34,721 bases of DNA from Nemertoderma westbladi (taxonomy: Eukaryota > Animalia > Xenacoelomorpha): assembly GCA_032718475.1 (NCBI GenBank), contig JAUCBJ010007780.1, positions 1 to 34,721 of the forward strand, given 5' to 3'. A program made the translations under genes and the position numbers. Positions 5,118-34,364 of this stretch are shown piece by piece; position 1 is the first letter of the stretch, and the number at the start of each line of letters is the position of its first letter. Below the pieces are notes generated by a model, which did no database searches, had not been told where the DNA came from, and saw only the letters and a program-made list of their open reading frames with translations.

Positions 5118-5123
5118 GACACC

Positions 5124-5479
5124 GCTGAGGATACCAAATCTGTGGATGGCACATTCACAAGAATTCTACGTCGGGTTCACTGAGTCAAGAACAAATGCAC
5201 ACATCTCCAACCAGACACTATAGTTACATCATTTGAGGTGTCTTATTGCCACCCCCCCCCCCCCCCCCCCCCACGCCAAGCATGATACTTGGGCGGGGCC
5301 GCCTCTGCATCGCATGACATTGCTTTTGCCACTAGGACCAGCAAGGGCACGCACAATCTTGTATTTTAGCAGCCTCATTGAGAGAATATGCATGGTGGAC
5401 AGCCCATGATTTTATTGAGACGCATCTTAAAGGACACTGGCCTTGATGATGCGTATAATCTGGCGAAAGTCATGAGGGG
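5124..5479 (+). mobile_element. Degenerate 3' fragment of RTE-clade non-LTR retrotransposon
   Basis: Reverse-complement homolog of 6304-6680 (shared gctgagga..ccaaatct.tggatggcacattcacaagaat and gagacgcatcttaaaggacactggcctt), with stops, frameshifts and a poly-C insertion. Confidence 0.8.
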
Positions 5480-6303
5480 TACATAATTGTTGTGGCTCTA
5501 TTTTCTCGGTAACACGAAATAGCTGCAAACTGCAATTCCGGCCTGCCGTTTGAAGAATTGCATGGTGGCAGCGCAATTTTATTATTAAGCCGGCATAGCT
5601 ATGCCATATGCCAATGCTGCGACAATGCAGCACGCCGATAAAAGATAGAAGATATTTTCAATACACTATAATTTCATTGTAGCCGAGTAGACAGTCAACA
5701 CATTCTACTACTGTAGTGCGGAGTGATATAGAAATATTAGGTAATGCAACTATTGGGGTTGCATGCCTAGGCGGTTATTACTACGGTAGTACCTGGTGCC
5801 TATTGCCAAGGCATATTCTACTATGGTTGTACTGTGTGTCAAGGCGCCAGATACTTCGGTGGTATACTGTACCTGTAGTATTCACTCCGTTGTTGTTATG
5901 TTGGTGTTGTTGTTGTTGTTAATTTCTTGTTAGGTATTGGTATTAGGGCTTTGTACGTCTCCAGTAGCTCTTTTAATTACTATAGTAGTTACCCTGGTTA
6001 CCCTGGTTGAGGTGCTAATTTAAAACAACAAAATTTTTAATTTTAATTTTTTTAATTTTAATTTTAATTTTTAATTTAATCTTTAATTAATTATTGAGTA
6101 CTGGCAAGGAAGGAATTTTTAATTTCATTAAAGGTTTACGTTTAATTAAACGAGTATCATTTAATCGTGTTATATTTATAAATAAATTATATAGTTGTCT
6201 ATACTTATGAGTAAAATAATAAACTTTCAATAATGTGTCATGACTTCAAATGCATATCCATTAGTACAACTACTGGGATCGGCATGCTGCTGCAGCTGCA
6301 TTT

Positions 6304-6735
6304 TTAAGAATGATGTGCCGGCTTGACGACAAAATTGCGCCGCCACAACTCCCTATCACCCATGACATTTGCTAGATCATCCGCATCTTTAAGGCCAGTG
6401 TCCTTTAAGATGCGTCTCAAGAAAGTCATGGGCTGTCCACCATGCTTATTCTCTCCATGAGGCTGCCAAAGTACAAGATTATGCACTGGCTGGTCCTCAC
6501 GGCGAAAGCAATGTCCTGCAAAATGGAGGCAATTTTGATCTAGTGTCAAGCTTGGGGGAACCAATGAGATACCTCCAATGTTATACAGTGTCTGGTCGGA
6601 GATGTGTGCATTGTACTTGACACAATAAACCCGGCGTAGCATTCTTGTGAATGTGCCATCCAGAGATTTGGTGTCCTCAGCAGTTAGAGCCCAGCATGGA
6701 CTCCCATAGAGGAGTACCGGAACTACTGCTACTCT
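6304..6735 (-). mobile_element. 5'-truncated RTE-clade LINE, C-terminus of the RT ORF
   Basis: Translation VPVLLYGSPCWALTAEDTKSLDGTFTRMLRR...LHFAGHCFRREDQPVHNLVLWQPHG...GGQPMTFLRRILKDTGL...MGDRELWR matches the typical RTE post-RT C-terminal motifs (LLYGxExW, F(A)GHxxR, GRP, DRxxWR). Confidence 0.85.
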
Positions 6736-7109
6736 AAATAATCCATTAGTACCGTGTATTTATAAGGGAATTAGCAAACGGAGGCCTACCAATTAGCGGG
6801 GGGAGGGAGGGGAGGGGCGGTTTCCAGCAATCCCGCAGTCAAGAACGCCCATCATTTGCAACGCTTCCAAAACTACGTTGCATTTTTGGAGGTTTTAGTT
6901 CATGATAGTTTCACTGTAGTATGCAGATCCAGGTATTATAAAACTAAAGTAATGAGTCGACTTGAGTTATGAAATACATAAAATATAAATATTGGATTGA
7001 AAAGATTATGGAAAATTGGTAAGATGTATGTTTGATTGATTGTTTAAACTGTACTTTAATATATTTAGAAGGTGACGTTTAAAGTGTTTCGAAAAGGGTA
7101 ATGTATTTG

Positions 7110-8067: not shown

Positions 8068-8404
8068 GTAACTAATATAACTGATACAATTACTAATATA
8101 ACAGATACAATTACTAATTATAACAGATACAATTAATTACTAACTAATATAACAGATACAATAACTAACTAATATAACAGATACAATAACTAACTAATAT
8201 AACAGATACAATAACTAACTAATATAACAGATACAATTACTAACTAATATAACAGATACAATAACTAACTAATATAACAGATACAATTAATAACTAATAT
8301 AACAGATACAATTACTAACTAATATAACAGATACAATTACTAACTAATATAACAGATACAATAACTAACTAATATAACAGATACAATTAATAACTAATAT
8401 AACA
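8068..8404. repeat. Intronic 25-bp minisatellite (TAACTAATATAACAGATACAAT(A/T)AC), with 21-bp variants at the left end
   Basis: Directly visible tandem units, roughly 14 copies. Confidence 0.95.
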
Positions 8405-8465
8405 TATACTATTATGATATAATGTATAATAGATATTTCAAGTAGATAATCAACAATTTCCCAAG

Positions 8466-13455: not shown

Positions 13456-15141
13456 CTAATTATTAGTTTGGTTGAAAAATACTTTTTTGGTTAACGTTGT
13501 TTCCGGAAGAGAAACCTGTTTGGATAGGTCTTCGAAAGTTATGTTAGTTAACCTTCGGTTGACTTCGGTCAAAATCGAAATCAGGTCGTGTTTATTCGCA
13601 TACTCGTTGATACAATTACACAACTCCTTTATGTAATATCCTCTGTAGGACAAGTGACCAGGCGTGGTCGAATGGGCGATTAGGAAGTCCTGCTCCGAGG
13701 CGACGTAATGCGATGGGGCCCCGACGCTGTCAGTCGGAGGCAATTTCGCGCTCTCCATAGACTTCAGCCCCATGCAAGCCTGGAAAAAGAACATTTTTGG
13801 TTTCCACGCCAATTTAGGACAAACTGTGGCCTGGAAGTGGGTGGTTAGTTGAGAGTATTCAATGGGTATACTGTCAGATCCAAATAGGAAGCCATCCTTT
13901 CCGTGTGTCATTATGAAACAAATAAACGAGTCGCAATCTTTGTGGTATGGTTCCCGGGAGGTATAACATAGAACGCTGTAGAGATCCTCCGCTGTCAAGT
14001 CGAGTCTAATTGCCACCTTGTAACCAAGATTTCTGAACGTATTCTCCAGGCTTTTGACATCTTCCTCGCTTCCCGTTCTATCCTCCAGATTTTCGTCATC
14101 GTGATTTGTTTTCGTAAAGTGGTAATTGTTTATAATAAGACACAATCCATGAGGCCTTTTGGACATATCATATTGAAAATCTGGTCCTTCGCTGAAGGAT
14201 GTCACAATATCCTCCTGTACAGATTGCCTATCTGCAACCTGATGGTTGTCTCCAAATATTTCATTTTTGACCAATGATTCACTGGCCCCTAGCGTAGGCG
14301 CAGTGTGATTGTATCTTTCTTGCGTCTCCTCTTGATACGATTGCCCCACTTCACTGACAACAAAACTCTTATGAAGTTTTGCGAACCATACACTTCCGGT
14401 ATATTTGTCCACTTTAATTTGTGTCTGTCTTAGATGAGCGTTTGCGCCAACAAAATCAGCCAAGACAGAGACATCCTTCTCGCTAATGATTCTAGACTTT
14501 TCTAGAATGCGTATGAGTCCTATAGTATCGGAAACCTGATCCCAATCACAGCGAGGTGTTACGGAATTCCACGTCAGACACTTGAAATCATTAAAATCCT
14601 TTTTGGTAAAATCTTTAATAACCTCGTAAAGCAGCGCCCGATATGGCGAGATGTGGGTGAAGGGATTCTGATGGATTTTGTATTGTATTTTTAGACGATC
14701 CGTATTGAATATTTGAAGTAGGTCCATTCGTACCACCATGTACAGGAGAATCTCCAAAAATTCCGTGTTATTCTCATCAATGAGCCCTATTCGACAGAGT
14801 TCTTGGAGCAGTTTCTTTCCCGAGTCAATTTCTTCCAGTCTGCTTTCATAGATTTTATCGGAACACAAGAACTTCATGCGTCGAATGTCGCGTCGATTTA
14901 GATTGTTGGCCACTCGTTCTAGTTGATTTTGGAAAGTTCCATGGTGGATTCGTACCGCATCCACCGGTGGATTGTTGACATAGCCTCTCTCGGGATTCAT
15001 TGGAGGAGGAGAGTCATCAGTTGGAACACTTCTCATAGTTGCCATGACAATACGATGACGTAGATGTTGTTTAAACAACGTCTTATTTTGACCAAAATAC
15101 GAAAAATGTTTATTAATTTTAGTTTTTTCATGTACACTCAT
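13456..15141 (-). CDS. CASP8: Caspase-8/10-like initiator caspase (two death effector domains + peptidase C14), single exon; probable start at Met33 (15045)
   Basis: DED1 (MKFLC...RMDLL, RxDL motif), DED2 (ISPYRALLYEV...), p20 (PHGLCLIINN, DRTGS, catalytic His in IMTHG, KPKMFFFQACMG), p10 (QDFLIAHST...SYR...DLISILTEVN...TLTKK). Orthology among CASP8/CASP10/CFLAR was not tested. Confidence 0.93.
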   Translation of the reverse strand: MSVHEKTKINKHFSYFGQNKTLFKQHLRHRIVMATMRSVPTDDSPPPMNPERGYVNNPPVDAVRIHHGTFQNQLERVANNLNRRDIRRMKFLCSDKIYESRLEEIDSGKKLLQELCRIGLIDENNTEFLEILLYMVVRMDLLQIFNTDRLKIQYKIHQNPFTHISPYRALLYEVIKDFTKKDFNDFKCLTWNSVTPRCDWDQVSDTIGLIRILEKSRIISEKDVSVLADFVGANAHLRQTQIKVDKYTGSVWFAKLHKSFVVSEVGQSYQEETQERYNHTAPTLGASESLVKNEIFGDNHQVADRQSVQEDIVTSFSEGPDFQYDMSKRPHGLCLIINNYHFTKTNHDDENLEDRTGSEEDVKSLENTFRNLGYKVAIRLDLTAEDLYSVLCYTSREPYHKDCDSFICFIMTHGKDGFLFGSDSIPIEYSQLTTHFQATVCPKLAWKPKMFFFQACMGLKSMESAKLPPTDSVGAPSHYVASEQDFLIAHSTTPGHLSYRGYYIKELCNCINEYANKHDLISILTEVNRRLTNITFEDLSKQVSLPETTLTKKVFFNQTNN

Positions 15142-15410
15142 ATCGACATATTTATGTGAATAATTTATTAATTAATTTAATTATTTCATGCTAATCTACA
15201 GTCTTATCAGAATAAACTTATTATTATCTGGAATTATTCAGTAATAGTGTTATCTAAGCAAATATCCCCTTTATAATATTCAATTTCCGCCGCAGGAATA
15301 AATATCGCATATATATATATTCCTTGCCAATATAAAATTCCCACATGAATAAAGACTGTCTTGAGGGTCGGGTGGGGTAATTACAGTACAACATGCTAGC
15401 CATTATTTAT

Positions 15411-18601: not shown

Positions 18602-21600
18602 ACACGTTCGTGGGCCCTCGCGCAGCACGAGGCCCAGTTATTAGATACAAATTAAAATTGAGCGACTGTATCACAAAATCAGGTTTTGAGAAATTTACCC
18701 ACACCACCAATCAATCAAAGAAAGGGGGACAGTACGTGTTCACCCCCTTTAATCCCCCCCCCCCCCCCCAACCTTCCCAACCACCAATACATAACCGGGA
18801 CATCTACCACCCACGGAAGGGTAGCACGAACTTATTTCCAATCGCACGTTAAATATGCAAAGCCAGGTGGTTTATAGGAATATAATAAACGCAGTACTCG
18901 TTTTCATTATAAGCCTCTTTGCGTTCGTCCTGTTTTGTATTTAAATATATTTCTTAAACGCAGGCTGACGATATTTATAATAATAATAACTAGGGATGCG
19001 ATCAATATGTGAAGCCAGGTGGTTTATATAATAATTTAGTCAACGAGGTACTCGTCTTCATTATATGCCTCGTTGCGCTCGTCGCTTGTCCTGTTTTGTC
19101 ATAAAATATTTTTCCTAAACGCAGACTGACGATCTTTATACAGTTATAACTATGCGAAGTTTCGAAACTGTGCGATACATCTATGTGGAGATGTGTGATA
19201 TGTGGAGATGTGTGATACAACGCCAACGCATCTTATGCCGATGTAGTAATATGGGTATTGAAATAATATTAAATCAATGTACACTCTTAAAGCTGCAGCG
19301 AAAAAATGTAGCTAATTTCCTAGGTTACATATAAAATAATAATATTATTTTTAAGAACATTAATTTTACTACTTTGCAAAAATTCAATTAAAAAATAACC
19401 AGACATATATACATTGTGGAATAAACTATTTCAGATAAGCCTACACAACAGCCATGCCATGGATGGTATTTATGTTATTATATCTGTCATTTACCTGAGA
19501 TAGCAATACAACACTTATAGTAGAGTCAATACAGGAAAGATGTTGGGATGTTGGAATGCTGCCTGGGCTGGAATAGCAATACTGGTTGCCTATTACAGTA
19601 CAATTCCTCTCTGGTTAGTCTACAGCCACAACTCCAAGCTAGCTCCACACCAGCAGAGACATGATCAATAATCATTCCCAGCAACTAGCTGCTGCCTTAC
19701 ACACACATCCTTCCATCTTACCAGCATGTTAGCCAATAAATGAGCAGTATTTAATGAGAATCAATTTTTTATGACGTTTTAATTACTTTAGATCAATTAA
19801 AGACACAATTAATAAAGCAAATCACTTGAACTAATTAAAAACTATAATAGAATGGGGTATGTGGATTACATCTGTATAATTTTTAATTATAATTATTTAA
19901 ATCTTATACTGTAAAACAATTAATTTCCTTTAAAAGGCAGGTTGAAAATGGTGTTTTTACCGTAATAACTTAATTAACTAATTAACTGCTATTATCTTAG
20001 CTTCTCGAAGGCCACAAGGAAATTCTACTTGGAAAATTTCTAAACTTTTGCCAAACAACATGTGTACCAAGTTTGGATAGATTTCATCAAAGATTGGCCG
20101 AGTTATTAACGTTTAAAATTGAACACTGCAAAAAAAGCGACAGAACGACAGAACGACACGTTCGTGGGGCCTTCGCGCAGCACGAGGCCCAGTTATGAGA
20201 TACAAATTAAAATTGAGCGACTGTATCACAAAATCAGGTTTTGAGAAATTTACCCACACCACCAATCAATCCAAGAAAGGGGGACAGTACGTGTTCACCC
20301 CTTTTAATCTCTCCACCCCCCCCCCCCCCCACCCTTCCCAACCACCAATACATAACGGCGACATCTACCACCCACGGAAGGGTAGAACGAACTTATTTCC
20401 AATCGCACGTTCAATATGCAAAGCCAGGTGGTGTATAGGAATATAATCACCGCCGTACTCGTCTTAATTATTATAAGCGTCGTTGCGCTCGTCCTGTTTT
20501 GTATTTAAATATATTTCCTAAACGCAGACTGGCAATCTTTATAACTATGGATACGTGCAATATGCGAAACCAGGAATGGTTTATACGAATATAATCAATG
20601 CAGAACGCAGTACTAAATTCAGTCGATGCAGTAATGATATTCAAATAATTAATTTATTAATACCAGTACCCTCTGTTAATGCCTCAGTGTAAAAACTTAG
20701 ACAATTCAACTACAAAGAAATCCCATCAAAAAATAATAAGCCCAATATTTATGAGGAAAAAACAAGTATGGATATAAATAAGCCTCCTGCAGTGGTAAAA
20801 TGTTATAACGAACCTGTCTTTAGACTGGGTAGTTTTTGTCTAAAGCTGAGGCCGGCAAAAACACGATGGATATATTTACCTATGTATATCACTATATATG
20901 TCACTATATCACTCACTATGTATGTTCACCAAATGGCTTGAAACCACTTGCATGCATTGTAAAATTGTAAACGCAAGTATTTATCAATTGTTGTCTAGTT
21001 GTTGAATAAAAAAGTTGGGAACGATTCGAAGTGCGATATTCGAAATATTTGCATATTTTCAACATTATTGAACGCGAAATTAAATACCCACAACTCCCTT
21101 GCTTGAAATGTTTTTCAGGTGATTGATATTTAGCAATTATTATGAGGTTACTTACTACTGAAATCTGACAGAATGCCAAACGTATTATTATAGTTCTATC
21201 TCTATTCAGCCAGTTAGTGTAATGTCAAGCAGTACATCATTTATATATCGTATGTATCTATAGGGCCTAATTGTCATCGTTATAATACTGTCATCAACTT
21301 AGGCTAAGCTCAATTGTAATGCAAAGGCTTAGTAGGTTTTGTATATCTGGGACGTTTACAACAGCTGTCGATTAAACTAACAAAACCATAAAACTGAACC
21401 AGGGTGGCTGCCAGCCGGGTACCAACGGCTGTTGGGTAGACTTAAGGGAACATTTCACAAACTTTCATAGGATGCTTGTACATGTACATTATATTGGTTG
21501 CTCCGATGTTTTTATTAGGCTAACTGAGAATGTATCAGGTATAAATACTGTAATTAGTGTTCTTTATTTTATTTATCTAATACAGAAAAGACCCCTCCGC

Positions 21601-24251
21601 AGAATAAACTGCTCTTTTGGGCCGTTTCTCAGGTTGCGGATATGGATACCATTTCACACATCATCGTAGTAATTGTGATTATGATTTGTTTGCCTAGGCG
21701 AATGTGTATTACATTAGATGGGAGGCAGTTTTTTGGTTGATGCAAGTCATTCTTGGTTTGCATCTTCCAATCCCATCTGTTTCTTGGAGTCTGTGTAAGA
21801 CAGGTTCGTTTAAAGCCATCTTGATGGCGTTCTAGTTGACTGACATTTATTAAATGAGATCTGTCTAACACACAATAACACAATAATAGACTGAATAGTA
21901 GGGAATTGCTAGCTATGGCCAATCTGTCTACCGGCCTGTACACATGTGGTTACTTACATTCGCATTCCCATTGAAGAGCAACTGGCTGTTCTACACACAC
22001 CAAACATCCTTCCTATCTATCCTATTTACCAGCACCGAGCCAACTTGGATGTTAACCAATAAATGAGCAGTATTTAATGAGAATCAATTTTTTTGCCGTT
22101 TTAATTACTTTAGATCAATTAAAGACACTAATTATTAAAGCAAATCACTTGAACTAATTAAAAACTATAATAGAATGACGTATGTGGATTACATCTGTAT
22201 AATTTTTAATTATAATTATTTAAATCTTATACTGTAAAACAATTAATTTCCTTTAAAAGGCAGGTTGAAAATGGTGTTTTTACCGTAATCAACTTAATTA
22301 ACTAATTAACTGCTATTATCTTAGCTTCTCGAAGGCCACACGGAAATTCTACTTGGAAAATTTCTAAACTTTTGCCAAACAACATGTGTACCAAGTTTGG
22401 ATAGATTTCATCAAAGATTGGCCGAGTTATTAACGTTTAAAATTGAACGCGACAGAACGACAGAACGACAGAACGACAGAACGACAGAACGACAGAACGA
22501 CAGAACGACAGGTTGATTAATGGTACCACTACGCTAAGGCTCACTCACTTCGTGGCTCGCCCCACAGAACGACACGTTCGTGGGGCCTTCGCGCAGCACG
22601 AGGCCCAGTTATTAGATACAAATTAAAATTGAGCGACTGTATCACAAAATCAGGTTTTGAGAAATTTACCCACACCACCAATCAATCAAAGAAAGGGGGA
22701 CAGTACGTGTTCACCCCCTTTAATCCCCCCCCCCCCCCCCCCCCAACCTTCCCAACCACCAATACATAACCGGGACATCTACCACCCACGGAAGGGTAGC
22801 ACGAACTTATTTCCAATCGCACGTTAAATATGCAAAGCCAGGTGGTTTATAGGAATATAATAAACGCAGTACTCGTTTTCATTATAAGCCTCTTTGCGTT
22901 CGTCCTGTTTTGTATTTAAATATATTTCTTAAACGCAGGCTGACGATATTTATAATAATAATAACTAGGGATGCGATCAATATGTGAAGCCAGGTGGTTT
23001 ATATAATAATTTAGTCAACGAGGTACTCGTCTTCATTATATGCCTCGTTGCGCTCGTCGCTTGTCCTGTTTTGTCATAAAATATTTTTCCTAAACGCAGA
23101 CTGACGATCTTTATACAGTTATAACTATGCGAAGTTTCGAAACTGTGCGATACATCTATGTGGAGATGTGTGATATGTGGAGATGTGTGATACAACGCCA
23201 ACGCATCTTATGCCGATGTAGTAATATGGTTATTGAAATAATATTAAATCAATGTACACTCTTAAAGCTGCAGCGAAAAAATGTAGCTAATTTCCTAGGT
23301 TACATATAAAATAATAATATTATTTTTAAGAACATTAATTTTACTACTTTGCAAAAATTCAATTAAAAAATAACCAGACATATACATTGTGGAATAAACT
23401 ATTTCAGATAAGCCTACACAACAGCCATGCCATGGATGGTATTTATGTTATTATATCTGTCATTTACCTGAGATAGCAATACAACACTTATAGTAGAGTC
23501 AATACAGGAAGGATGTTGGGATGTTGGAATGCTGCCTGGGCTGGAATAGCAATACTGGTTGCCTATTACAATTTCTCTCTGGTTAGTCTACAGCCACAAC
23601 TCCAAGCTAGCTCCACACCAGCAGAGACATGACCAATAATCATTCCCAGCAACTACAGTAGCTGCTGCCTTACACACACATCCTTCCATCTTACCAGCAT
23701 GTTAGCCAATAAATGAGCAGTATTTAATGAGAATCAATTTTTTATGACGTTTTAATTACTTTAGATCAATTAAAGACACAATTAATAAAGCAAATCACTT
23801 GAACTAATTAAAAACTATAATAGAATGGGGTATGTGGATTACATCTGTATAATTTTTAATTATAATTATTTAAATCTTATACTGTAAAACAATTAATTTC
23901 CTTTAAAAGGCAGGTTGAAAATGGTGTTTTTACCGTAATAACTTAATTAACTAATTAACTGATATTATCTTAGCTTCTCGAAGGCCACAAGGAAATTCTA
24001 CTTGGAAAATTTCTAAACTTTTGCCAAACAACATGTGTACCAAGTTTGGATAGATTTCATCAAAGATTGGCCGAGTTATTAACGTTTAAAATTGAACACT
24101 GCAAAAAAAGCGACATAACGACAGAACGACAGAACGACAGGTTGATTAATGGTACCACTACGCTAAGGCTCACTCACTTCGTGGCTCGCCCCACAGGTTG
24201 ATTAATGGTACCACTACGCTAAGGCTCACTCACTTCGTGGCTCGCCCCACA
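18602..24251 (+). mobile_element. Head-to-tail array of three non-autonomous Helentron/DINE-1-like elements (18602-20155, 20156-22565, 22572-24251)
   Basis: Each unit starts ACACGTTCGTGGG plus a GC hairpin, has ~150-bp internal repeats, and ends with tgtaccaagtttgg...(GACAGAAC)n; units 2 and 3 add the tail ...ctcacttcgtggctcGCCCCACA. Short subterminal IR GTGGGGC/GCCCCAC. Units 1 and 3 are near-identical. No transposase ORF. Confidence 0.75.
22449..22511. repeat. (CGACAGAA)n octamer microsatellite
   Basis: About 8 perfect copies; shorter versions at ~20138 and ~24111. Confidence 0.95.
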
Positions 24252-24945
24252 GACGTTTACAGTACACGTTACCATAGAAATTTTCGGGAGTTGGCAGGTA
24301 GACTATATCATGATAATTACTGTACTTTATATATTCCTGTATATTTCTTTATATCACTATCTTTATTAGTTGATGTTAAGATTGCAGAATTTTTAAAAAA
24401 TTAAGTAGAAAATAAAAATATATATAGTTGAAAATTTTAGAAAAATATGATGTATTTCTTAAAAAGGAAATCTATGTTTTTTGGTATAACTTGCTCTACA
24501 TATTGAAGGTGTGATATATTAATTGTTAAATTATCTTCCTTCTAGTTGCACTTGTGTTGACAAAAATGGAGATTACATCGTGGATTTCTTAAGTGAAACC
24601 CTTACTAGAGAAGATTGTGAGTATCATAGAACGCTGATTAAAAAATAACTTTCAGTTTGTTGTGATACTGTTTCGATATTTATATTTTGGGGTTGAGGTA
24701 TAGTGTTTAATGGTTGTGGTGTTATGTTTTTTCTTTTGTTTCAATAAAATAAATTCAGCTCAGCATGATATATTCATTTTCTTTAGATAATTGTAAATTT
24801 GCGCCATTAATGCTGCTCTCCCAGCTATATCATTACAGCTTGTCGAGATTTGCTTCACTAAAGGACGATTTCATTGAACAGCTTGAAAAGTGTAAGTGTA
24901 ACTAATATGATATTTCTGTGTTTTGCAACAAAGAACTGTGGTACT

Positions 24946-25800: not shown

Positions 25801-26141
25801 GAAGAAAGTTGCAAAAATTTGTGGAACTAGAAAAGAAACTGAAACGATTTTTTCGGGTGGGGGGACTGGAACTGAAACTAATTTTCTGTCAGTTCGAAGC
25901 GCTACTTCCAACCTATCATAGCATCCCTCATAATGTGATGTGCAGCGGGAAATTTGAATTCACCAAGAGCCAACGTTTGTAACAGTCTTAATCATCCTGT
26001 ATCCTCATTGATCCTGCAGGCTGCAGCAAACAGGCAACTGCTACCGGTAACACAATCAACTGATCAACGACTGAACGAATCAAAGTACAATCGGACAGTA
26101 ACAACCTACTGACACCGCTTTACCAGTTTTAATCAACTGCA

Positions 26142-26891
26142 ATGACTTCGTTTATTCGACTGCCGGTACCTTTACTAACGCCTCGTCGTTCCCACCAATC
26201 CTTACCGACATCGACGTTCGGCCCGGTAGCGACGGGGTTCGGTGTCTACAAGAACCCGTCATGGCGGGACCCGGACCCGCTGGCAGGCAGACTGGACACC
26301 CAGACCAACCGGAACTGGCGCCCTTCACCGGCGCCCCACGGCTACTACAAGGCGCAGACCGCGGATTTCGTACCGTTGTACATGCGCGACCCAACCGTCG
26401 CTAAGTTCACCCGAGTGCTAATGATCGAGGGTAAACGCCGCGAATGCGAGGAGATTATGGCGGCGACATTCGAGCGGATTAAGCGACACCAACTTGACCG
26501 GCACCACAAAGACAGAGACAAACCCGTGGAATTGGACCCCTTGAAGGTGTTCAAATCGGCATTGAGTAACTGCCGCCCATTATTGGGACTCAAAAAGGTT
26601 GTGGGAGGTGGGGGCATTGTGTACCAGGTCCCGGTGCCCATGTCTGATAAACGTAGTGTCTGGTTGGCTATGCGGTGGCATATCACGGAGGGGCGGGAAC
26701 TTGCGCGCCCGTTGTACGGCGGAATGACTCGACACCACATGGACGAGAGGTTGGCAATTCTGCTTCTAGACTCTTATAATAATAACGGGAAAGTTGTACA
26801 GCGTAAAATTAATTTGCACAAAAGGTGCGAACAGAACAAAGCTTACGCTCATTTTAGGTGGTTCCCAACGCGAAAGAGAATGAAAAAATAG
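26142..26891 (+). CDS. MRPS7: Mitochondrial small ribosomal subunit protein uS7m, single exon
   Basis: Basic, acid-free N-terminus like a mitochondrial presequence; S7 motifs DPTVAKF..LMIEGKR, DPLKVF..AL.NCRP, GG.VYQVPVP..DKRS..LAMRW, LHKRCEQNKAYAHFRW; AATAAA at ~27235. Confidence 0.93.
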   Translation: MTSFIRLPVPLLTPRRSHQSLPTSTFGPVATGFGVYKNPSWRDPDPLAGRLDTQTNRNWRPSPAPHGYYKAQTADFVPLYMRDPTVAKFTRVLMIEGKRRECEEIMAATFERIKRHQLDRHHKDRDKPVELDPLKVFKSALSNCRPLLGLKKVVGGGGIVYQVPVPMSDKRSVWLAMRWHITEGRELARPLYGGMTRHHMDERLAILLLDSYNNNGKVVQRKINLHKRCEQNKAYAHFRWFPTRKRMKK

Positions 26892-28192: not shown

Positions 28193-28718
28193 TTGCGCAA
28201 TTAAAGTCTGGTGGAAGTTTTAGTGTATGAAGAAACGCCCGAAACTTATTGCTTCAACATTTTTATAAAGTATTATTTCCAGCAACATTTTAAAAAAAGT
28301 ATAATTTTTTCACTATTCTCGAGGTATTTTATTTACCGAGCGCCAGCGACGCATCGAGAAAACATTGAAAAAAAGTTCCATGGACTACGTTTTTTTCCTT
28401 GTAATACTTAATTTCCTTTATTATTAAATTACCCTACTCGGTTACTTCACCCGGTCTAATCTGTTTGCTATTTATACACCACCTACGATTTGATTATTGA
28501 TAGTAACAATGTGTTGGCAAGCTGTATTTTTCGAGGTGTTTGCTAGGGATCTAGGGGTCTTAACCTCGAATGATAAGTTTATTTTACCGAAAATAACTTA
28601 TCTTTTATTGGCGCAATTGTAGGACTAATCCCATCACATGCGTACTTTTTAACCGGGTAGTGTACAAATTTAGGAACCGCGTAATTTTTCTTGAAATTAA
28701 TATCTCATATCTCTCCAA

Positions 28719-28761
28719 ACCACGTACGCGTTTCGACCTTACTGGGTCTCATCAGCGTGGT
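28719..28761 (-). ncRNA. Type I hammerhead ribozyme (minimal stem III)
   Basis: Minus strand: ACCACG CUGAUGA GACC-CAGUAA-GGUC GAAA CGCG UA CGUGGU. All core nucleotides present, 6-bp stem I, 4-bp stem II, GUA triplet; predicted cleavage between 28725 and 28724. Confidence 0.92.
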
Positions 28762-28824
28762 GTCGGATTCGAACCTGGGACCTCGAGGTGGAAGCCGAGA
28801 CTACAACCACTAGGCCACAGGTTC
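28762..28824 (-). promoter_or_regulatory. tRNA-derived (Gly-TCC-like) internal RNA polymerase III promoter
   Basis: A-box TGGCCTAGTGG (28817-28807), B-box GGTTCGAATCC (28775-28765), anticodon-arm-like CTCGG-CTTCCAC-C(T)CGAG; no acceptor stem, so not a functional tRNA. Confidence 0.8.
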
Positions 28825-30478
28825 TTGAGATATGGAGTATTAATTTCAAAGCCAGCTGCCATTTTATTAGCCCCTGATTTTTGATTATTGATAGTAACAA
28901 TGTGTTTGGCAAGCTGTATTATTCGAGGTGTTTGTTATTATACATTTATTATAGGAAGGGATCTAGGGGTCTTAACCTCGAATGATAAGTTTATTTTACC
29001 GAAAATAACTTATCTTTTATTGGCGCAATTGTAGGACTAATCCCATCACATGCGTACTTTTTAACCGGGTAGTGTACAAATTTAGGAACCGCGTAATTTT
29101 TCTTGAAATTAATATCCTACGATTTGTTATACAAATCTTGACAGTTTAATTCAAATGTGAAAATTTTTTGGCCCGTGTGAAATTTATACACCACGTGAAA
29201 AATCCCCCAATGTGAAGAATACCAGGTGTCTCTAAAACCACAGGTTTCAGAAGGGCTGATTCTAACCAAAACAATAAACGAATAAGTATCTATACAGGTT
29301 ATAAAACACTTAATAAGGGGAAATTTGGAAAAATACAAATTCTTCATAATAATATATAAAATTCCAATATAATATCCCACATGGGCGGATTTTTTGGTGT
29401 AATTTCCTAAATGTTATTATATGAGTTAAAGAGAATCGACGTAATAGGTTTCTATGCAATCAAAATCCGTTCAAACACTCAAAAGTTATTGCAACTTTAG
29501 TATCTACAAGGGGTACACCAAAACGGAACTCAATATCCAATATTGGTTTATGTTGTTAAACGGCTCTCTAGTTACGTAATAAATATTCGAGAACAATCAA
29601 TTATTTTAACATTGAGTAAGGCAACATCAGGAGTTGAAGAGTAGAGTGATTGGAATCGCTGTAACTATGGAAGCAATATAGTAAAATACCAGTTCAATTT
29701 ATTTTGCAACAAAAAAAGTACCAATTTAAGAATAATAATTATTTATTACATGGGAAAAAAACTAGAACATTTTTTGTTCAATATTCTCTCGACCCCGTGA
29801 TAATAATTTTCAAAAAGTTCTACTTTTTTCCTTGTCATAAATAATAATTATTTCTTTCCATTTCTGCATCCATTTTTATACTAGCTGCTAATATTATAAT
29901 AATATAATTCTATTGACAATAATTATTATTTTCTTGAGCAACAAGTGTCCCGTCGTGTGAGGAGTCCAGCAAGGTTATTTAATAACTCTTATTTATAAAA
30001 AATACTAAGTGGCATGACAATGGTTCACACGGTCAGCCTCGCGTAGTGATATCGTAAACAAATCACTGCAAATGCAGCTAATAATTGCCAATCGTATTCA
30101 TAACAAATATTATCTTATTGAAATTCGATAAAAAAACCTTTCAATTGAATCAGTAATTTAATTATAATGTAAGTTTTAAGTAAGTAAAAATAATATAAAT
30201 AACACAATAAACAATAAATTAGTACACTCGAATAAACATCGTGGATACAATATACAATATACACCAGCGATAATATATATATTCGAAATTGTCAGATAAT
30301 AATTAATATGCAGCGATTATTATCTATTAGAGTCAATTTGGTGAATTGAATTGTGTTTTAGAGGTAAAACATTAACATTATTTCACATGTATGATGAATC
30401 TTTTAAATAAATAACAAATAGAAATAAACAAAGAAAAATATTGCAATTAAATTAACGTGTACCGGGGCATTGTTAGTA

Positions 30479-31381
30479 TCAATCACTCTTACTGGGTGTT
30501 GGAACGTCTGTATTCCTAATGACACTGAGGTCGATGAGTCCGTTAAGCATCTTGTAACATTTATCGATATCCTCAGGCGAAACCGATTCATTGTTCCTCG
30601 TGAGAATATCGTTAAAGTAAATAGTCACCTCAGTTTTGAGTCTCTCCAATCGCTGCTGCAGTTTATAATTATCCATCTGGTAAGCGATATTCTCTCTCTC
30701 GACGTAGCGCACTTGGTTCTCGAGATCTACGATTCGGATTTTCGCGTTCCTACAGGTTTTCTCCATCTCCGCATTGCCGTTCTGGAGTTCCTGGATCTCT
30801 TTATCTAAGAGTTTTAGATCTTCGGTCTCGATGTTCCCGCTCCCCGTTTCGTTTTTGGACTGGAGGAGTAGCAACTCGTCGATGGTGACCTTGGCTCGTT
30901 TCATAGCGGTAGAGGCTCGCGGACATCCCGACAGCGAGCGGTGGGTTAGGAAACTACCGTTGTTGTGTCCGGATCCGTCGCAACCGGGCGTCGGACAGCA
31001 TTGCGATTCGCCCTTCTGTAACTTAAGAAACTTTCCGTCCGGGAAGGCGACGTTGCCTCCTTTAGCTGCTATCGGACAGCCGGACGCGCTGCGGTGGCTG
31101 CTGAACTTCCCGGTCGCGTGGCCGCTCCCGCTGCAGCCGATTACCGGGCATCGTTGCGTCTCGTGCTCGAAGTTTGCGGGAGCGGTGAGTACGAAGGTGC
31201 GTTTAGCGGTATCGGAGGCGGCCGTGGACGGGGCTAGGTTCATTGGGAGACCGCCGCGTGTTACGTTGTGATTCAGTGACGAGACTCCCGGACTGGTTTG
31301 CTGGGATGAAACCGTAGGTGATTGGTTTCCGACTATAACAATTGGATTGACAACTTCTTTACCATTTAAACTAGTCATCAT
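30479..31381 (-). CDS. MYT1: Myt1/ST18-family (ZTF-11-like) C2HC zinc-finger transcription factor, two fingers plus C-terminal coiled coil
   Basis: [26 protein letters not shown] and [28 protein letters not shown] are canonical Myt1 CCHHC fingers; [12 protein letters not shown]...[15 protein letters not shown] is the family coiled coil. First ATG at 31381 (the track starts at a TTG); upstream exons cannot be excluded. Confidence 0.9.
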
Positions 31382-31467
31382 CAAGTCATACGTACTTACT
31401 ACAGTACTACCTGACTACTGGACTACTGTCTGACTGTGAAATACTACAGCTCTACGTACACTGGTGC

Positions 31468-33495: not shown

Positions 33496-33802
33496 GGACG
33501 TCCCGAAATTAATGTATGGACGTCCCGAAATTAATTTATGGACGTCCCGAAATTAATTTATGGACGTCCCGAAATTAACTATATGGACGTCCCGAAATTA
33601 ATTTATGGACGTCCCGAAATTAACTATATGGACGTCCCGAAATTAATGTATGGACGTCCCGAAATTAATTTATGGACGTCCCGAAATTAATTTATGGACG
33701 TCCCGAAATTAATTTATGGACGTCCCGAAATTAACTATATGGACGTCCCGAAATTAACTTATGGACGTCCCGAAATTAACTTATGGACGTCCCGAAATTA
33801 AT
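33496..33802. repeat. 22-23-bp minisatellite (GGACGTCCCGAAATTAA + 5-6 nt), 14 copies, with an inverted copy at 33844-33870
   Basis: Counted directly. Confidence 0.95.
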
Positions 33803-33960
33803 CTATCAACCAATCAGAATCGTAATGAAATAACTAATTAATAGACGTCCATAAATTAATTTCGGGATGTTAATTTCGGAAATTAATTTCAATAATTTTT
33901 TTTTTTATTATAAAGATTTTTTTAAATATTTTTTTACAATGTATAATTCGCGAACACTGC

Positions 33961-34364
33961 GGGGTGACTACAAAACAAAGACCCAATTAAAAGACCTGCA
34001 TAATCTTGTTACATGTGTTAACTTTCGTTAATTGTTTTGAATCCCCCGTCACGCCTCTGTAACTTGCTCCTTTACTAACCTGCTCCTTTAAATAGCAATG
34101 GTGCGTAACGCTCATTGTGACCTGTACTAAACAAAGAGGTAAAGTCGCGTTACGTCCCAAAGAGCGTTAGGTTCCAAAGAGCTTTAGGTCCCATTGCCAG
34201 AGAGCGTGAGGTCACATTGCCATTTAAAGGAGCAGGTTAGTAAAGAAGCAGGTTACAGAGGCGTGTTGGGGTACCAAAACAATAAACGAAAGTTAACACA
34301 TGTGTTTTGTATTTGTACAGGTCTTTATTATTTGGGTCGTTGGTCTTTGTTTTGTAGTCACCCG
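33961..34364. mobile_element. MITE with ~150-bp TIRs and target-site duplication (Mutator-like)
   Basis: Arms 33961-34113 and 34202-34364 are imperfect reverse complements (ggtgactacaaaacaaagacc / ggtctttgttttgtagtcacc); ACACTGC(GG) duplicated at 33954 and 34365. Confidence 0.8.

Follow-up and report, generated by a model that had tools for sequence, protein, structure and literature searches.

Organization of the locus

The window, by which we mean the whole stretch of DNA analysed (34,721 bases), carries three host genes, each in a long uninterrupted frame:

13456-15171, minus strand: two-DED caspase (caspase-8-like)
26133-26891, plus strand: mitochondrial uS7m
30479-31414, minus strand: C2HC zinc-finger protein, presumably MyT1-like

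A protein search with uS7m returned six matches at E 1e-20 or better (40-41% identity), which came from frogs and a hemichordate and included no schistosome; a schistosome is accordingly an unlikely host. The three uninterrupted frames suggest an intron-poor animal genome. A further frame of 151 codons on the minus strand (6304-6759) has no Pfam match and a 75% inverted relative at 5121-5508; we take it to resemble the C-terminus of an RTE-type LINE.

The uS7m and zinc-finger genes converge, and between their 3' ends lies a non-coding insert of 624 bp that comprises about 1.5 copies of a 412-nt unit and is flanked by a target-site duplication (TSD) of 10-11 bp. The element and the zinc-finger gene share one strand, and the element lies about 1.4 kb beyond the stop codon of the gene. 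Its boundaries and repeats are as follows:

28483-28492, no strand: left TSD, 10 bp (11 bp with 28482)
28493-28704, minus strand: left repeat, the RNA-sense 3' part of the full unit; 28493 corresponds to unit position 28884
28884-29116, minus strand: right repeat, 233 nt, a 5'-truncated upstream copy of the unit that forms the pseudo-LTR of the partial tandem
29117-29126, no strand: right TSD, a 10-mer match to the left TSD

The original prediction of a 624-bp insert bounded by a TSD was borne out by a scan of the window, in which the 10-mer CTACGATTTG has two exact occurrences, at 28483 and 29117. The chance expectation for an exact 10-mer match is about 1e-6, or about 1e-4 if 100 offsets are allowed, and the TSD becomes 11 bp if the C at 28482/29116 is counted. 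The last four bases of the left TSD, TTTG, are also the unit letters just before 28884, and this microhomology leaves the left insert boundary ambiguous by 4 nt. The predicted direct repeats are likewise present. They are identical across 160 nt (28545-28704 and 28957-29116), show spacings of 391 and 412, and enclose a core of 179 nt. Within its first ~73 nt, the left repeat lacks 1 nt and 20 nt (21 nt in total) relative to the right repeat and has two base differences. The right repeat ends 20 nt before the next hammerhead cut site. The roughly 1.5 copies proposed earlier resolve into one full 412-nt unit and a truncated copy.

Promoter-like head, hammerhead and predicted RNA fold

The minus strand, taken as the RNA strand, contains the following elements:

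28853-28916, minus strand: predicted stem-loop, whose A/C/U-rich unpaired loop holds 28884
28827-28849, minus strand: 5' arm of a 23-nt enclosing stem, upstream of the predicted Pol III start
28807-28817, minus strand: A box; the tRNA-like head spans about 28765-28826
28765-28775, minus strand: B box, sharing 3 nt with the outer part of hammerhead helix I
28714-28767, minus strand: type I hammerhead by descriptor match, with the predicted cut between 28725 and 28724
28691-28713, minus strand: 3' arm of the 23-nt stem, which encloses the tRNA-like head and the hammerhead
28590-28593 (also 29002-29005), minus strand: the sole four-T run of the unit on its RNA strand, located in a hairpin

The layout described in the original prediction stands: on the minus strand, the A and B boxes are joined directly to a type I hammerhead. 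A scan with what we take to be the A/B-box consensus gave a single match in the window (A box 28817-28807, B box 28775-28765) and none in 200 shuffles; the type I hammerhead descriptor also matched once in the window, with one of 200 shuffles giving any match. The earlier description of the hammerhead as intact has to be qualified, as helix III consists only of the self-complementary hexamer ACGCGU, a weak, dimer-favouring form. Helix I has 6+5 bp with one bulge and helix II has 4 bp with a 6-nt loop. Such helix I and II lengths belong to the canonical metazoan hammerhead type, in which a short palindromic helix III favours cleavage as a dimer (PMC4209133). In Rfam, Hammerhead_HH9 matched the insert (26.6 bits, E 2.8e-4), which is under the gathering score of 52, and no match in the Rfam scan reached gathering level.

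ARAGORN found no tRNA gene at the tRNA-like head, where the anticodon position reads TCC. The run of four T is a possible weak Pol III stop. Scarcity of T runs on the RNA strand was considered as a sign of Pol III transcription and rejected (P 0.56 against composition).

Three contigs in a sediment metagenome run (X7) belong to a diverged relative with the same order of parts, which matches the window at 28706-28847 and 28923-28959. This relative is identical over 28706-28781, the stretch that holds the hammerhead and the B box; it shows 12-13 changes within 28752-28847, and its body differs at 167 letters. The nine changes listed are all in 28785-28814 and spare both the B box and the A-box bases that we assume to be invariant; the clustering has P ~6e-5 if all 12 changes lie beyond 28781. 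By this sequence comparison, the ribozyme and the promoter boxes look constrained and the cloverleaf does not. At the anticodon position the relative reads TTC, and its changes, placed by hand, restore the anticodon stem inconsistently. A conserved cloverleaf was therefore rejected, and the head is treated here as a promoter only. With its unchanged hammerhead and B box, the X7 relative also indicates that the family is not confined to this species. A pattern scan of metagenome contigs for the B box with the hammerhead core gave three matches that were rejected as chance (60-69% GC, unlike the unit), one of them a bacterial-type tRNA-Ser followed by a hairpin; the same pattern had no match in viral contigs.

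The circular minimum free energy is -105.6 kcal/mol (z -4.8), a value as low as which was reached by none of 60 shuffles. The plus strand likewise folds better than shuffles (z -3.4). Helices I and II of the hammerhead have predicted probabilities of 0.76-1.0, the stem pairs of 28853-28916 are predicted at 0.98-1.0, and position 28884 is predicted to be unpaired at 0.96-0.98. The predicted Pol III start falls downstream of the 5' arm of the enclosing stem, so this stem would exist only in read-through, multimeric or circular RNA.

Abundance, copy ends and template of the family

Seven of 12 public runs, from five studies, hold part of the stretch; six of these were analysed and X4 was left out. 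None of the 12 is recorded as an RNA data set containing the stretch, which says nothing about expression either way. Runs X1 and X2 both come from the species that supplied the window, so their loci are not independent. Contigs matching the 412-nt unit numbered 3046 in X1, 1090 in X2, 75 in X5 and five in X6, in agreement with the multi-copy mobile family that had been proposed. In X1, 1345 contigs have at least 99% identity to the unit and 1269 have 95-99%. Summed depth over the unit is about 1e5-8e5 in X1/X2, whereas the unique flank bin next to it has 26 and 16; summed depth is no copy number and supports "highly repeated" at most. The insert belongs to a highly repeated, young and homogeneous family.

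This copy departs from the family majority at four positions only (28677, 28883, 28905 and 28921). The C at 28677 and 29089 is private to this copy and occurs in both repeats, at positions where T accounts for 460514 of 460609 depth units of the family in X1 and 244457 of 244509 in X2. The 28905 indel is a common family polymorphism and one of the four differences between the repeats. The table of joints (28545-28956) contains many single-contig internal deletions of 50-175 nt, as well as an opposite-strand joint, 28594/28784, that is present in both X1 and X2 and could be a Penelope-type inverted copy. An X5 contig of 1831 nt (depth 401) matches 28692-28800 as a decayed copy with the core changed at three invariant hammerhead positions, and is probably an old copy inside another multi-copy repeat.

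The family has a preferred end at 28884, the inferred cDNA start, and scattered ends on the far side. Long unrelated flanks join the unit at 28884 in six of 226 partly matching contigs in X1 and nine of 220 in X2, a small share of the partly matching contigs, with end positions known for the contigs listed. These loose ends have a median length of 255 and an agreement of 0.50 and 0.44. Additional groups of 15 and 10 contigs are broken at the 28905 indel, with a consensus consisting of unit 28885-28904 preceded by non-unit letters (median loose length 14 in X1 and 116 in X2). Position 28884 is exactly the left end of this copy (28493). On the opposite side, the loose ends among the contigs listed occur at 28582, 28649, 28667, 28771, 28838, 28944 and 28945, in one or two contigs each. 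Two other candidate ends were rejected. The loose-end groups at 28550 (16 and 15 contigs) come from older copies whose sequence runs on into the unit, and so reflect an edge effect. A second start at 28922, of the kind that would leave a PLE-type tail, was suggested by three diverged contigs that begin there; an alignment break explains these equally well, since the base at 28921 is private to this copy and, in the X7 contig interrupted at this point, homologous sequence follows the break.

The freely permuted junctions expected by the original prediction are not supported, as unrelated flanks pile up at the same end in both runs. Had a circle been reverse-transcribed in rolling fashion from random starts, this would account for the closed consensus and for the private variant present in both repeats, and the contigs listed are a minority of the loose ends, the others of which may be scattered. 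Nevertheless, the recurrence of unrelated flanks exactly at 28884 in two studies, and at the end of this copy too, makes random starts very improbable. Since the family prefers an end at 28884, a partial tandem of the Penelope type describes the 1.5-mer better than a random permutation does.

The absence of a fixed end at the tRNA head, which had been predicted to distinguish the element from an ordinary SINE, was upheld: depth upstream of the head is about that of the head itself, and among the contigs listed there is no pile of loose ends at the head or at 28704/29116. The 22 and nine loose ends seen at 29116 are the unit's own continuation. These data also bear on a tRNA-carrying miniature LTR element (a Helenus-type TRIM with LTRs of 212/233 bp) or an ordinary SINE with a local duplication. 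Two direct repeats around a short core resemble such elements, and in our reading the repeat bins are 1.2-1.5 times deeper than the core bins. Helenus and Cassandra TRIMs also share with the insert a small-RNA-derived internal promoter that needs a repeated copy for its regeneration; as described, they have a TSD of 4-5 bp (4 bp in animal Helenus), a PBS and PPT, and the tRNA part inside the LTRs (PMC10886601), none of which applies here. The TSD is 10-11 bp, the tRNA-like part is in the core outside the repeats, the insert has no TG...CA termini, no unrelated flanks pile up at 28704/29116 among the contigs listed, and the same junction is seen again in other contigs and in the order of the X7 relative. 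We find this explanation scarcely credible.

Target priming by a LINE normally gives a fixed 3' end, a variable 5' end, a TSD of 10-11 bp and microhomology at an A-run. The insert fits this pattern in each of these respects. It could accordingly be imagined as a tandem SINE similar to Sm-alpha, mobilized by a LINE such as RTE, L2 or CR1 whose machinery treats the 28884 end as a 3' tail. The promoter-then-hammerhead order is that of Sm-alpha, and the frame at 6304-6759, which lacks a Pfam match, presumably resembles a LINE C-terminus. However, there is no poly(A) or simple-repeat tail at 28493, the unit is unlike the DNA that follows the 6304 frame (by eye and by self-BLAST), and the start is internal to a longer unit, as described for Penelope-like elements (PLEs). 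Mobilization by a LINE is therefore judged to be quite unlikely.

The cDNA appears to have crossed the hammerhead cut site once, so that the template would have been either a ligated circle or an uncleaved multimer. The unit is self-closing, as had been anticipated: the joint from 29116 to 28705 was found in eight contigs in X1 and two in X2, and run X3 contains a 441-nt contig that equals 411 nt plus a 30-nt overlap (depth 13.8, no branches). X3, which is only guessed to be RNA and carries another organism label, shows the consensus closing on itself and gives a weak hint of circular RNA. In the low-coverage DNA run X6, the consensus contig is 253 nt long (depth 11.9), has flank branches and is not closed. 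The private C in both repeats fits one template molecule read twice, or later gene conversion. All four differences between the repeats are within the first 73 of 233 nt (P ~0.01, post hoc), and this clustering fits two template units with later conversion as well as it fits one circle.

Copying of the same element from linear read-through multimers would dispense with the circle; the hammerhead would then be weak or serve turnover only, and the partial tandem would reflect ordinary 5' truncation. Consistent with this, the purified PLE protein PAc uses uncleaved RNA in vitro and no reads end at the PAc cut site (PMC11167929), helix III is weak, and the repeats differ at the common polymorphism 28905. 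We nonetheless consider it unlikely that the template was linear, in view of the private C common to both repeats, the branch-free closed contig in X3, the enclosing stem that would clasp the cut ends, the circles shown for coral, mussel and axolotl retrozymes (PMC7229834), and the hammerhead that is unchanged in the X7 relative.

Proposed mechanism and relation to known systems

We consider it fairly probable that the element is a retrozyme with a tRNA-like promoter, whose hammerhead-cut RNA is likely circularised and then copied by a helper, likely of the Penelope type, from a preferred internal site. Pol III would start near 28824 in a source copy with two hammerheads and read through one weak T4. 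The two hammerheads would cut as a dimer via the palindromic helix III and excise the unit; cleavage would remove the promoter-bearing 5' piece, yet the excised unit would carry a regenerated promoter at its 3' end. The cut ends may then be clasped by helix I and the 23-nt stem for a host ligase to join. A nick in AT-rich DNA would prime cDNA synthesis in the open loop at 28884, presumably helped at this locus by the 4-nt microhomology. The enzyme would pass one unit, cross the cut site and drop off at a variable place, and repair would leave the 10-11-bp TSD. The T4 could stop Pol III before the second hammerhead, and the model requires read-through. No RT or GIY-YIG Pfam match was found in 85 reading frames scanned in the window (78 plus seven long ones).

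If copying always starts at 28884, about 1.86 units are needed to include a promoter and two hammerheads, and this copy has about 1.57; it ends ~60 nt before a second complete hammerhead and ~115 nt before a second promoter. Having one hammerhead with a weak helix III, it is likely unable to release a circle itself, and it is likely a dead end for circle production.

Sm-alpha and the retrozymes, named as comparators in the original prediction, proved apt. In Sm-alpha of Schistosoma, which has a high copy number, a type I hammerhead follows a Pol III promoter of the tRNA type (PMC6765202, PMC2770079). After cleavage the promoter is found at the 3' end of the unit, so that tandem copies are needed for propagation (PMC6765202), and publication of this design dates back to 1998 (as cited in PMC6765202). 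The present element resembles Sm-alpha/Sj-alpha in having A and B boxes directly upstream of the hammerhead, in needing more than one unit and in its high copy number; the likeness is one of described design. The Sm-alpha-related SINEs are derived from tRNA-Gln (PMC2770079), whereas TCC occupies the anticodon position here, and the preferred internal end with a partial tandem is absent from the Sm-alpha descriptions as available (PMC6765202, PMC2770079).

Metazoan non-LTR retrozymes have units of 150-450 bp, form circles and have been hypothesised to depend on PLEs (PMC7229834, PMC7761336; Li, Clavereau and Pollet 2026, 10.64898/2026.07.22.740005). The insert shares with them a non-coding 412-nt unit with GC below 50%, a type I hammerhead with a short palindromic helix III, multiple copies, a TSD longer than 4 bp, a stable fold and the lack of a PBS/PPT-type LTR structure. 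In contrast to the A and B boxes seen here, the available portions of the retrozyme descriptions name no internal promoter (PMC7229834) and propose read-through (PMC7761336). The 2026 preprint counts as active those elements that have two units with complete hammerheads, and this copy has one hammerhead. In the same preprint, eight of the nine frog retrozyme dimers tested did not cleave (10.64898/2026.07.22.740005), which by analogy would weigh against a cleavage-based model. A link between retrozymes and Penelope was in print in 2020 (PMC7229834) and again in 2026 (10.64898/2026.07.22.740005).

The PLE footprint consists of a full copy preceded by a truncated copy (PMC8557442), and rotifer PLEs have TSDs of 8-10 bp (PMC3846280). 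Purified PAc starts cDNA inside an AC-rich stem-loop at AT-rich nicks; its start site lacks homology to the cut DNA, and hammerhead cleavage is dispensable in vitro (PMC11167929). The partial tandem, the preferred internal start in a predicted open stem-loop, the AT-rich target, the hammerhead and a TSD of about 8-10 bp all resemble PLE insertions. Unlike PLEs, the insert has no ORF, its helix II has 4 bp compared with 7-8 bp in PLE minimal motifs (PMC4209133), and at this locus there is neither an inverted 5' copy nor a 30-40-bp tail. The 4-nt microhomology counts against a simple match to PAc, whose start site is without homology to the cut DNA.

The element is real and represents a new family that is a variant of a known design. 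It is not a new kind of system, as each part has a precedent: by analogy, its promoter logic would be that of Sm-alpha and its insertion footprint that of a Penelope parasite. A tRNA-promoter hammerhead repeat outside schistosomes was not found in the literature covered, which was mainly open-access and did not extend to Repbase; the supplements of PMC7229834 list further invertebrate repeats, possibly including a similar one.

A stronger claim, which we regard as possible and on balance doubtful, is that of a self-promoting circular retro-RNA: a circle of 411-412 nt that combines a Pol III promoter of its own with a ribozyme and a fixed loop at which a Penelope RT starts, and that would have arisen independently of Sm-alpha from another tRNA, occur in at least two related aquatic animals and be spreading now. 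If so, tRNA-headed parasites would be movable by Penelope elements, as SINEs of PLEs, and insertions with private variants common to both repeats would, for the first time, prove directly from genomic sequence that reverse transcription had gone round an animal circular RNA more than once. Returning to the more modest reading of a retrozyme with a tRNA-like promoter, both the transcription of animal retrozymes and their copying enzyme are still open in PMC7229834, PMC7761336 and the 2026 preprint. Because this family is very young and homogeneous, has an evident promoter and a cDNA start that can be mapped, and carries private variants in both repeats, the questions of promoter, helper and circular template become testable in one genome.

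Other repeats are present in the window. A 1.56-kb repeat occurs twice (18602-20585 and 22049-24253) with 98.5% identity, each time with an extra partial copy of ~430 nt; CGACAGAA microsatellites are located at its junctions, and it has no hammerhead core match. This repeat is another partial-tandem mobile element. Large imperfect palindromes, MITE-like in character, together with 22-bp and 25-bp minisatellites, are found at 1550-2401, 33496-33890, 33962-34363 and 8069-8414.
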